Shown here one piece after another: positions 24,047 through 58,486 of a stretch of 64,000 bases of DNA; the first letter of the stretch is position 1, and each line of letters starts with the position of its first letter. The notes under the pieces were generated by a model. That model was not told where the DNA came from. It was given only the letters and a program-made list of their open reading frames with translations, and searched no databases. Both the position numbers and the translations under genes were made by a program. The stretch is from Channa argus. Lineage: Eukaryota. The stretch spans positions 3,977,726 through 4,041,725 of the forward strand of contig NC_090211.1 of the NCBI RefSeq assembly GCF_033026475.1, in the 5' to 3' direction.

Positions 24047-24183
24047 TTAGTCGTGGCTAAGGCTTCGCGGCAGCTCATTGGTCAGGATGTGCCACCGCTC
24101 CACCCTCTGACCCTTGTTCTTCAGGCAGTCCATCCAGTGACGGAGAGCGTCACCTTGGGAGTTACAACTCAGACAGACACCGC
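24047..24183 (-). CDS. doc2a: DOC2-family protein, terminal coding exon ((G)VCLSCNSQGDALRHWMDCLKNKGQRVERWHILTNELPRSLSHD*), stop TAA at 24047-24049
   Basis: Minus strand cttggtgtttag|GCGGTGTCTGTCTGAG...AGCCACGACTAA. The two leading bases complete GGC with the previous phase-1 G. It matches DOC2 GG..LG....GE.L.HW.DCL.N.D...ERWH.LTSELP....SD-stop. Confidence 0.8.
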
Positions 24184-25039
24184 CTAAACACCAAGAAAAT
24201 AAAATGAGAACAAGTTACAGCGCCTGGCTCACTGTGTAAAATAGAATTTGTAAGTGAATGCAATGATTTGCAAATTTTGCAAATACCAATATCTGGTTGA
24301 CAAGATTTCAAATGTTGATACTTAGAAATATGTTATTGGTTAAATGTGATCCAAACAACACGTGAAAAAGTTGGGTCAGGGTCGTATTTACTGTGGTGCC
24401 ACAATACGCTTTGTTCAACAACTTCCAAATGTTTCGTACTCGGGCCGTCAACTGCTTTCATTTTGAAGTGTTTTTTAATTCATTCTTATCTCATTAAGAA
24501 TTTCAGCTGTTCAACGGTGTGATGTCTTCTTTGTTTAATATTTCAGCTCATTATGCTGAAATGTTTTAATGGTTGACAGGTCTGGACTGCAGGCAGGTTA
24601 AATTTACCGCCTGGACTCTTGTATTACTGAGCCACGATGTTGGAGCTCATGCAGGTTTTGCATTGTGCTGCTAAAACTAACAAGAAAATTATGATACCAC
24701 TACTCATAAATAGGGATATTTGACTTTCAGGTGAAATTTTAGGTGAACTTAATTTGACCTTGTCTAAACTACTGAATGCACATGTCCACCTGTTCAATAT
24801 TCAGTACTTATTACATAACATGCTTTTCTCTAACAAGATGATTAACCACAAAAAGTCCCATTGTGAATCGACCACTGTGTTCTGGTTCAGTGACAATTTG
24901 TATTTAAACAGTCCTCTATCATCCTGCTGTTCACATTTTCACACCATGGAACCCAGAGGACACCTAACAATTGAGAGTTGTTAAGTTATTGCGACATTGA
25001 CAATTTTTGGTACAGAAGCTTTACTTTCCTTTTCTGACT

Positions 25040-25790
25040 TTTATTTTGTAACTGCTCAGCTCTACCTTCTGTTCTATTGTATTTCCATCACATTACTACT
25101 CATCATTAGTCTTCATCGTTTTCACCTGTTCCCCTGACTTTATATACTCAGCTCTCTGCTCAGTTCCTTGCCAGATTGTCTTGTGTTGCTGCTCTCTTGA
25201 CAGTCCAGCCTTCTCGTTTGCTTACTTCCCTCTGCCTCACTCCCTGCCTGCTTCCTGGAGCCACTGCCTGAACGGACACTATTGTCCTTCCATTTTTTTT
25301 TTTTTGGATTTCGATCTTCATTTGTTTATTTTTTAATTTATTTTTGGCTTTGGACTTGGATTATGAATATCTAGATTTGGATGTGAATATTTTTGCTTGG
25401 ATTTGAATTTGAAACTAGATTAATTGGTGTTCGAGTTGGATTTTGAATGCTTGGATTTCTAAATTATATGTGCGGATTTGGATTTTAGGCTTTTGAACTG
25501 GAACCTGGATTCTTGAGAGCAAGTTAGGTTATTTGATTTTATGCACTGGACATTTTAGGTTTGGACTTCTTGGTTTTGAACTAACATTACTGCAGCCTGC
25601 GTTGTCACTATTCCTCTTTCATTTAGCACATTGACATCGGCTGGATTTCCTGTATCCCCTGACTGACCTCACTATCCCTCCCTCCATTTGAGCTACACTA
25701 CGGTTTTGTCCCTCGAAGCACTCTCTCTTCAGCCTCCTCACATGCCAATTCACAGCTCCTCTACCTGTCGCAACCACAGATGATGAAATA
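25040..25790. repeat. Unclassified interspersed repeat, copy 1 (carries the minisatellite internally). It is related to 62270-63330
   Basis: Gapped alignment by eye of 25050-25215 with 62295-62455 shares the blocks gacttttattttg, ccatcacatt, gtttcacctgYtc.c.cccctg..tttatata.c and cagttccYt...gccagatYgtctg.t. I estimate about 70% identity. Confidence 0.4.
25330..25580. repeat. Degenerate minisatellite: about 15 tandem units of a ~12-20 bp motif (t)tggaYttKRa(tt)
   Basis: Direct reading: ...ggctttggacttggattatgaatatctagatttggatgtgaatatttttgcttggatttgaatttgaaactagatt...tgcggatttggattttaggcttttgaactggaacctggattc...ttaggtttggacttcttggttttgaac. Confidence 0.55.
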
Positions 25791-26206
25791 ACTAAATTGG
25801 CACTTAGTTATGGAACAATATTGTGTTTCTATTTCACAAGGATATTATGATCATAGGCAGAAACAGTAAAATTATCAAAAATCAAGGAGAAAAGGGAATC
25901 GGATCAGTAACACAGATGGTAAGGGTGATAAATATGCAGAAACAATCACAATAAACATACATAGGATTTCACTGAACAGCTTTGCCCACACTAATGAGCA
26001 GCTAGTGTTAGATTCATTAATATTTACAACTTCAGCATTTTCTCACAAATGACTCCGATGATGATCCTGTCAAAAATGTTCTGTTTATTTTGAGACTATT
26101 TACTCATCATTTTACAAAAAGGTCACATGGGTGAGGATGAGTTTCTTTGCTTTATTGTGTTTCCTCTGCAACAGGAGTTTACCAGATTCCATATCAGTGT
26201 TGCTCA

Positions 26207-26303
26207 CCTATGAAGTCATTGGAGCGCCCCAGGTCATAGTCCCACACGGTTACTTCCAGCGCCTTGTTGGTCAGCTCCGACAGAGAGATCTCATAGAAAA
26301 ACT
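26207..26303 (-). CDS. doc2a: DOC2-family protein, C2B exon ([33 protein letters not shown])
   Basis: Minus strand gtgactgtcactgcag|GAGTTTTTCTATGAGATC...AATGACTTCATAG|gtgagcaac. It is 97 bp, phase 0 in and phase 1 out. It matches DOC2[35 protein letters not shown]. Confidence 0.85.
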
Positions 26304-57164: not shown

Positions 57165-57188
57165 ACACACACACACACACACACACAC
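57165..57188. repeat. (AC)12 microsatellite
   Basis: Direct reading: acacacacacacacacacacacac. Confidence 0.85.
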
Positions 57189-57772
57189 TTTCCTTTTTGG
57201 GTTTTCCTTCGAGGTTTATTCACAATCGCATGCTGACTTTGCTACAGTACATGTTTACTTGAGATTAAATGCTTGCTCCTGAGTTGTGTAATTAAAGGCT
57301 TTCTGGTCTGTTATTTCACACTCCTTTTGATTATGGATACCCCTCATCTGGATGCACCCCCCTCTGTCTTTTCAATGGCTGAAAGCAATAAAGGGTGGAA
57401 AATACACTGATATGTAGCAAGCTTGTTTCAGGCTACAGCAGACCAGATAAAAAGAGCTAATTTTTCCATATGACACTTCTGATTATGTTGTACTTCAGTC
57501 CCACACTGATGTATGTGCTGTGGGTGTATGCATGCTAAACAGGAAGTAGAACATGAAGATTCATGTTCTGGTCTTAAATTCAGTGTAAACTCATTGCCGT
57601 TCATATGAGGTTTGTGCTCTGACACAAAGTAATTAATTAAAGATGAAAACCGAGCTTCATATCTGAATGTCAAGATGTCCCTGTGCTTGATTAATGGCTC
57701 TAAGTGTAATCAGTCTGAAATGAGATCCAATGAAATTAGGCATGAGTTTTTTCCAGTCATACACACACACAC

Positions 57773-57882
57773 CTGAGCGTCTTCCTGTGCATGTCTTCCT
57801 CCGTGATTCCAACATAAGTGAGCGTTTCATTCCACACTGGATTGAGAGAGTTACGGATTGTCTTCGTTTTCAGCTTATTGGC
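57773..57882 (-). CDS. doc2a: DOC2-family protein, C2A exon ([37 protein letters not shown])
   Basis: Minus strand tctttcag|GCCAATAAGCTGAAAACGAAGACA...GACGCTCAG|gtgtgtgtgt. It is 110 bp, starting in phase 0 and ending in phase 2. It matches DOC2 [26 protein letters not shown]...K.LR. Confidence 0.8.
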
Positions 57883-58411
57883 CTGAAAGACACAAACACA
57901 GATGTAGTGCTAAATACCAAATTTAATTATTCATTTTGTTTCAGCTTATATGGTAAATGATTTTTGATCCATTTCACTTTGCTCCATTTTTTTGTTAGAG
58001 AACACCCACCACCAAAAACATTTAGTTTAAGATAATCCAGGTTTAAGATTTCTATATTTTAACATTAACTCTGCCTATTTGGGTTTATAGACAGAAAATT
58101 AGTTATAAAGATTGTAATTTCATTGTGAGCAGCAGATTAATTTTTCCATTCAATAGTAGTTATTTTGAGATTTGTTATGCTGTGTACGTTAGCTGAAATC
58201 TGCTGAGTGCAAACGGTCCTGCTACTAAGACATGTAGGCACATATATAAATGTATGTATATATATATGTGTGTGTATATATATGTACAGACCCAGATCTG
58301 CCAAATAATAACTAAATGAAGATAGATAAGAAAATCATTAATGCTTACATCTTTTGTGGATAACTCTGTGTTTAGTGCAAAACACATTTGCACTGTGTGC
58401 TTGGATCTCAC

Positions 58412-58486
58412 CTTACATGCTCCAGGCAGCAGGTGGAGTTTGACGTAGGGGTCGGCTAAACCATTGAAGTCCATGGGCTTCAAACC
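58412..58486 (-). CDS. doc2a: DOC2-family (double C2 domain) protein, first C2A exon present in the window ([25 protein letters not shown])
   Basis: Minus strand ttgtcttcag|GGTTTGAAGCCCATGGACTTCAATGGTTTAGCCGACCCCTACGTCAAACTCCACCTGCTGCCTGGAGCATGTAAG|gtgagatcc. This is 75 bp in phase 0 with canonical AG and GT. The peptide is the hallmark C2A Ca-binding loop of DOC2 and rabphilin ([23 protein letters not shown]). The doc2a symbol rests on remembered DOC2A-specific motifs found in later exons. Confidence 0.8.

Follow-up and report, generated by a model that had tools for sequence, protein, structure and literature searches.

The window analysed here, a 64,000-nt stretch of the Channa argus genome (RefSeq assembly GCF_033026475.1, contig NC_090211.1, positions 3,977,726 to 4,041,725 of the forward strand), carries a series of short minus-strand exons scattered among long introns between window positions 58486 and 24047. 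Such a dispersed arrangement raises the question of which gene these exons belong to, how much of it lies within the window, and whether it is still functional. A preliminary description, based on the letters alone, had joined eight of them into a DOC2A-like gene with two C2 domains. The assignment is upheld, and the gene turns out to be partial. The locus almost certainly comprises the 3' eight of the ten coding exons of a percomorph doc2a, one of the pair of DOC2A copies found in teleosts. This is an ordinary and already known gene, of which the fish orthologues are routinely annotated.

After the borders of two exons were corrected, all eight exons are preceded by an AG acceptor and the seven internal donors are all GT. 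The entry phases (0,0,2,0,0,2,0,1) are mutually consistent, and the spliced coding sequence of 891 nt forms an uninterrupted frame of 296 amino acids followed by TAA. The preliminary description had thus been right about the eight exons, their canonical splice sites and their phases, but its fourth and seventh exons were each placed 1 nt too low. Taken literally, the borders 49811..49752 and 26303..26207 break the frame and introduce in-frame stops, even though the eight exons then also sum to 891 nt. The peptides quoted for the individual exons are reproduced exactly by the corrected coding sequence, and the protein, given as about 260 amino acids, is 296 amino acids long. Three of the seven proposed junctions (58412/57882, 57773/52138 and 35099/28819) stand as they were, and the other four move by 1 nt to 52012/49812, 49753/35301, 28738/26304 and 26208/24183.

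The best database match is DOC2A of Parambassis ranga (XP_028268148.1). Its annotated coding sequence, which could be rebuilt exactly, consists of ten coding exons, and the model in the window corresponds to exons 3 to 10. When the P. ranga protein was aligned to the window by tblastn, one match was obtained per modelled exon, with borders coinciding with those of the corrected model. The E-values of these matches range from 2e-7 to 2.5e-33, which places the exon set far beyond chance. Coding exon 3, the first in the window (58412..58486, minus strand like all the others; 75 nt, phase 0), contains the start of calcium-binding loop 1 of C2A. It is flanked by AG and GT, was found with E=1.9e-12 and equals exon 3 of P. 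ranga in length and phase. Coding exon 4 (57773..57882, 110 nt) continues C2A at 97% identity (E=3e-18), and coding exon 5 (52012..52138, 127 nt; E=2.7e-21) ends this domain and includes calcium-binding loop 3. The 60 nt of coding exon 6 (49753..49812) encode the DOC2A-specific linker LPSPTAMGEALRGISCYLRE; these 20 amino acids are 100% identical to P. ranga (E=2e-7) and form a segment without counterpart in DOC2B. Coding exon 7 (35099..35301, 203 nt; E=2.5e-33) holds further linker and the start of C2B, which extends through coding exons 8 (28738..28819, 82 nt) and 9 (26208..26304, 97 nt). The coding part of the last exon (24047..24183, 137 nt including TAA; E=2.5e-23) ends in the C-terminus ...ERWHILTNELPRSLSHD. 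The introns between these exons measure 529, 5634, 2199, 14451, 6279, 2433 and 2024 nt, so the earlier figures of 6.3 and 14.5 kb for the two longest were accurate.

The encoded 296 residues consist of a C2A domain, the DOC2A-specific linker and a C2B domain. Pfam C2 (PF00168) matches the model twice (E=4e-51). Residues 1-101 match the C2A structure of DOC2A (4mjj, E=1.5e-49) and residues 163-293 the C2B structure of DOC2B (4ldc, E=8e-65, 221 bits); rabphilin and synaptotagmin structures score below those of DOC2. The best 120 database matches, all of them proteins of ray-finned fishes, bear the name DOC2A; their identity to the model is 74-94% and their coverage 80-100%. The P. ranga protein heads them with 94% (94.3%) identity over 100% of the model. 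None of the 134 proteins compared, which included the 15 listed members of the P0001 cluster, was identical to the model, and 94.3% was the highest value.

A phylogenetic tree places the model more precisely. Representatives of 50%-identity clusters were gathered with the full-length orthologue; the ten that are named include DOC2A of Pan and rabbit, DOC2B of Gekko, doc2d of Electrophorus and rabphilin-like sequences from a hemichordate, a coral and a syngnathid. The tree was built by neighbour-joining on Kimura distances over 257 trimmed columns, with 200 bootstraps. It groups the model with percomorph DOC2A (100% bootstrap), within one teleost DOC2A group, to which the Esox and Danio sequences also belong. 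A second teleost DOC2A group is the sister of this one, and the two form a teleost DOC2A clade (100%) which in turn is sister to mammalian DOC2A from Pan and rabbit (94.5%). DOC2B, doc2d and the rabphilin-like sequences fall outside the DOC2A clade.

Short sequence markers lead to the same assignment. MDVNG is present in every DOC2A aligned, where the other sequences have MDANG or MDSNG. ALRGISCYL lies in the 20-residue linker exon of DOC2A and does not occur in DOC2B, while EFFYE(I) in DOC2A corresponds to EFCYE(I) in DOC2B. These three motifs were found in 10/10 aligned DOC2A sequences and are lacking or altered in all the DOC2B, doc2d and rabphilin-like sequences aligned. They therefore behave as had been claimed when MDVNG, ALRGISCY and EFFYEI were proposed as diagnostic for DOC2A. 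A further marker is MDFNG, which reads MDHNG in DOC2B. The choice of DOC2A over DOC2B or rabphilin is thus borne out by the tree, the database matches, the motifs and the exon structure.

Compared with the annotated P. ranga gene, intron positions and phases are identical in 8/8 exons, and exon lengths in 7/8 (75/110/127/60/203/82/97/137 nt here, 75/110/127/60/209/82/97/137 nt in P. ranga). The only difference lies in exon 7, which is two codons shorter here, in the acidic and glycine-containing linker. Over 296 aligned codons, 78 synonymous and 18 non-synonymous differences were counted, corresponding to a synonymous divergence (dS) of 0.54, a non-synonymous divergence (dN) of 0.027 and a dN/dS ratio of 0.049. 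This ratio implies strong purifying selection, and hence a constrained, functional gene. The whole locus is collinear with that of P. ranga from end to end, including the eight exons, blocks within the introns, a neighbouring zinc-finger gene and a conserved block at 20750-21080.

The window does not contain the beginning of the gene. Residues 1-143 of the P. ranga orthologue have no tblastn match anywhere in the window, and neither do the N-termini of all 120 homologues (tblastn, word size 2, E<0.1). A search of the six reading frames of the window with regular expressions for the N-terminal motifs LGTLEF, IQEHMA and CPGPIRP was equally negative. In addition, a collinear block at 59419-59612 matches intron 2 of P. 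ranga. Together, the lack of an N-terminal match and the position of this block show that 58487..64000 (minus strand) is the 3' portion of intron 2, which separates coding exons 2 and 3. Coding exons 1 and 2, which encode about 143 amino acids, the N-terminal region in the orthologues, lie beyond position 64000. In DOC2 proteins, which are soluble and have neither a transmembrane segment nor a Rab-binding zinc finger, the N-terminal part includes a region that interacts with Munc13. By analogy with the orthologues, among them sequence P0001 with a conserved N-terminus, these exons are expected to encode ...ALGTLEFELRYE...LRAK and an N-terminus starting with MTV.

Could the exons belong to another double-C2 family, be it DOC2B, doc2d (gamma), rabphilin-3A or synaptotagmin, with the DOC2A label a mere naming artefact? 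C2 domains are indeed alike between families, the C2A structures in the PDB scoring 172 bits for DOC2A, 169 for DOC2B and 162 for rabphilin. Database names are moreover assigned automatically, and one cluster carries both 'rabphilin-3A' and 'DOC2B' for isoforms of a single gene. However, the labelled DOC2B, doc2d and rabphilin-like sequences all lie outside the clade, supported at 94.5%, that unites the model with DOC2A of Pan and rabbit. Identity declines from 79-94% with fish DOC2A and 66-67% with mammalian DOC2A to 55-62% with DOC2B- and rabphilin-type sequences. The ALRGISCYL linker exon of the model is missing in DOC2B. The probability that another family is concerned is therefore close to negligible.

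An intact-looking set of exons might also belong to a decaying, unprocessed duplicate of doc2a. With two DOC2A clades in teleosts, certain lineages might dispense with one copy; intron length is roughly double that of P. ranga, with transposable elements inserted, and damage in the 5' exons would not be visible from this window. Against such decay, the model has neither stops nor frameshifts, all its splice sites are canonical, and a dN/dS of 0.049 at a dS of 0.54 reflects long-term purifying selection. The non-coding blocks and the end of the 3' untranslated region (UTR) are conserved in collinear order, and the clade of the model also holds a Danio rerio DOC2A sequence (P0027). A pseudogene is very unlikely on these grounds. 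Still more improbable is that the eight exons form a complete short unit, transcribed from a separate promoter within the window, that encodes an isoform made of C2A and C2B only. Shorter isoforms of 346-348 amino acids are annotated in some fish (P0003, P0028, P0127), but GLKPMD still begins about 50 residues into these forms (residues 50-54). The first exon in the window has an AG acceptor, phase 0 and no ATG context, and it matches an internal exon of P. ranga, exon 3; N-terminal peptides of the 120 homologues gave 0 matches in the 5.5 kb upstream. A functional doc2a, entering the window at its third coding exon, is thus by far the preferred reading, and three points weigh against it. The start codon and the N-terminal region lie outside the window, so intactness applies to exons 3-10. 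The use of the seven modelled junctions in RNA is predicted from the genomic sequence. Finally, the calcium dependence of Doc2 in spontaneous release is a matter of debate (PMC5758110).

At its 3' end, the gene probably extends well beyond the stop codon. A block of about 334 nt on the minus strand (20750-21080), about 3 kb past the doc2a stop, shares 88% identity with the P. ranga locus, a higher conservation than that of some coding exons. An AATAAA hexamer at 20761-20766 closes this block, and the similarity to P. ranga ceases beyond it. Conserved block and hexamer point to a putative 3' UTR of about 3.3 kb (20745..24046, minus strand), which would probably end at about 20745 with the block as its conserved end.

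Other non-coding parts of the locus are conserved as well. Blocks at 41358-41783 and 36477-36865 (both ~75%), 57608-57772, 57207-57339 and 59419-59612, all intronic, are 72-80% identical to P. ranga and collinear with it. No coding signal was seen in these intronic blocks of doc2a, which makes them candidate non-coding enhancer elements. It is conceivable, if still rather doubtful, that the intronic blocks and the UTR-end block are functional regulatory elements of doc2a instead of being passively conserved. Block 20750-21080 has kept its 88% identity although synonymous sites have diverged to a dS of 0.54. If they are functional, the elements might act in mRNA localisation or stability, in regulation by microRNAs, or as neuronal enhancers.

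Downstream of doc2a, and convergent with it, lies a plus-strand C2H2 zinc-finger gene of two exons (10657-10849 and 11922-12979), the predicted product of which has 416 amino acids and several fingers. It shares 73% protein identity with the gene at the same position in P. ranga. Upstream of this zinc-finger gene, two further blocks (3863-4410 and 899-1254) are also conserved with P. ranga; they may represent its 5' UTR or promoter, or be part of another gene. A search of the window for transfer RNA (tRNA) and other non-coding RNA genes yielded none (ARAGORN; Rfam at gathering thresholds).

All but one of the seven introns exceed their P. ranga counterparts in length, and the seven together amount to 33.5 kb compared to 15.9 kb. 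This added length arises partly through the insertion of transposable elements, which include a short interspersed nuclear element (SINE), a Tc1-like element and long interspersed nuclear elements (LINEs). The preliminary description had both the 6.3-kb and the 14.5-kb intron filled with such elements. Pieces assigned to all three kinds are present in the former, while nothing of the kind can be demonstrated in the latter: the 14.5-kb intron contains no open reading frame resembling that of a transposable element and, by self-BLAST, no repeat in common with the rest of the window. Pfam searches of the long stop-to-stop segments of this intron and of the region 58.5-64 kb returned no transposable-element domain.

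The SINE of the 6.3-kb intron (30935..31183, minus strand) is derived from a tRNA, with a box A-like motif TAGCTCAGTTGG and a box B-like motif GGTTCGATCCC. An 18-nt target-site duplication without mismatch, AGAGTTGCAGCCTTCTTC, encloses it at 31184-31201 and 30917-30934, and neither ARAGORN nor Rfam called the element as a tRNA. In an Rfam scan of this intron by E-value, the only candidate was EBv-sisRNA-1, rejected as being at chance level (23.5 bits against a cut-off of 58). The same intron contains the degraded, frame-shifted remnant of a Tc1-like transposase (about 32170..33814, minus strand), which matches HTH_Tnp_Tc3_2 (E=7e-4) and HTH_38, both below the Pfam cut-offs. It includes the peptide ...WAKDKKDWTAAERSKVMFSDESKFRISFGNQAPRVWTKRGE..., which we take to resemble those of Tc1 transposases. 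A third piece, on the plus strand at 34499..34735, is 89% identical to the tail of another LINE copy, at 7331-7566, and 85% to 51382-51553. It is read as a fragment of a LINE 3' tail, and it could equally be a SINE with the same tail.

A longer LINE fragment is found in the 2.2-kb intron (50134..51553, plus strand), consisting of the C-terminal part of a reverse transcriptase and a 3' tail. It has a weak RVT_1 match of its own and shares 89-98% identity with a copy in inverted orientation at 7331-9033. The latter copy, on the minus strand and outside doc2a, has an RVT_1 match above the Pfam cut-off and a long open reading frame (7505-8599). The identity of 89-98% between the two copies points to a young LINE family.

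In the intron upstream of coding exon 3, two stop-free segments, at 60205-60561 (minus strand) and 62889-63335 (plus strand), contain peptides that look like reverse transcriptase by eye (LLFTDDGVLFAS; FEKAYDCVPRD). Neither segment has a Pfam match at E<0.01, and both probably derive from LINEs that decayed long ago. Between the zinc-finger gene and the 3' end of doc2a, a tandem segmental duplication was observed (14911-16531 / 18895-20344). Its two copies, about 3.98 kb apart, are 98-100% identical and contain remnants of Tc1-like peptides. Either the duplication is recent or it arose as an artefact of the assembly.

DOC2A is a known calcium sensor that acts in slow and in spontaneous transmitter release. 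It is among the genes of the human 16p11.2 copy-number variant, and none of its neighbours there has a counterpart in the window. By homology, the protein encoded here would be a soluble double-C2 calcium sensor. In both C2 domains, the aspartates of the loops are the same as in the DOC2A sequences aligned. Four acidic loop segments match both fish and mammalian DOC2A; the first, third and fourth are identical or nearly so, and one of the segments reads CDEDKL[ST]HNE. If it behaves like mammalian Doc2 alpha and beta, calcium would be bound by the acidic residues in the loops of the two domains, and the protein would then be driven to SNARE complexes and to membranes of acidic phospholipids. 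Together with Munc13, it may promote asynchronous (slow) and spontaneous neurotransmitter release at these sites. Calcium binding and neuronal expression of this particular doc2a are likewise predictions by analogy. Doc2 proteins have been described as double-C2 proteins that bind calcium and have been linked to both spontaneous and asynchronous release, with Munc13 as a partner (PMC3923640, PMC6783474, PMC11100570). In zebrafish, loss-of-function mutants of doc2a show behavioural and seizure-related phenotypes (PMC5886277, PMC12211354).

The main yield of this analysis is annotation. It provides exon coordinates corrected by +1 nt for two exons, shows that the 5' end of the gene falls outside the window, and adds a probable end for the 3' UTR. 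Beyond annotation, the finding matters little. The locus does offer a dated example, from a single teleost lineage, of introns growing by the insertion of SINE, Tc1 and LINE elements.

Among known double-C2 proteins, rabphilin-3A (PDB 2cm5, 4lt7) has tandem C2 domains closely related in sequence. Rabphilin is longer and carries an N-terminal Rab-binding zinc finger. The labelled rabphilin-like sequences reach 49-55% identity and stand outside the DOC2A/DOC2B clade. DOC2B (Gekko japonicus XP_015277144.1; PDB 4ldc, 4lcv) shares with the model the C2A-C2B layout and the C-terminal ...ELPG..LSD tail. It differs by the absence of the ALRGISCYL linker exon and by MDHNG, MDANG and EFCYEI at the marker positions, and it forms a separate clade.

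Mammalian DOC2A (Pan paniscus XP_034808124.1; rabbit G1TF98) is closer, as a sister clade with 66-67% identity. It shares MDFNG, MDVNG, ALRGISCYL, EFFYE and all loop aspartates with the model, but the C-terminal tail after ELP is different (...RSLSHD in fish), as is the length of the linker between the C2 domains. Unlike mammals, teleosts have two DOC2A copies. Isoform X2 of Danio rerio DOC2A belongs to the same clade as the model. The closest correspondence is with the doc2a of P. ranga, with which the locus shares its phases, its collinear order and the convergent C2H2 zinc-finger neighbour.

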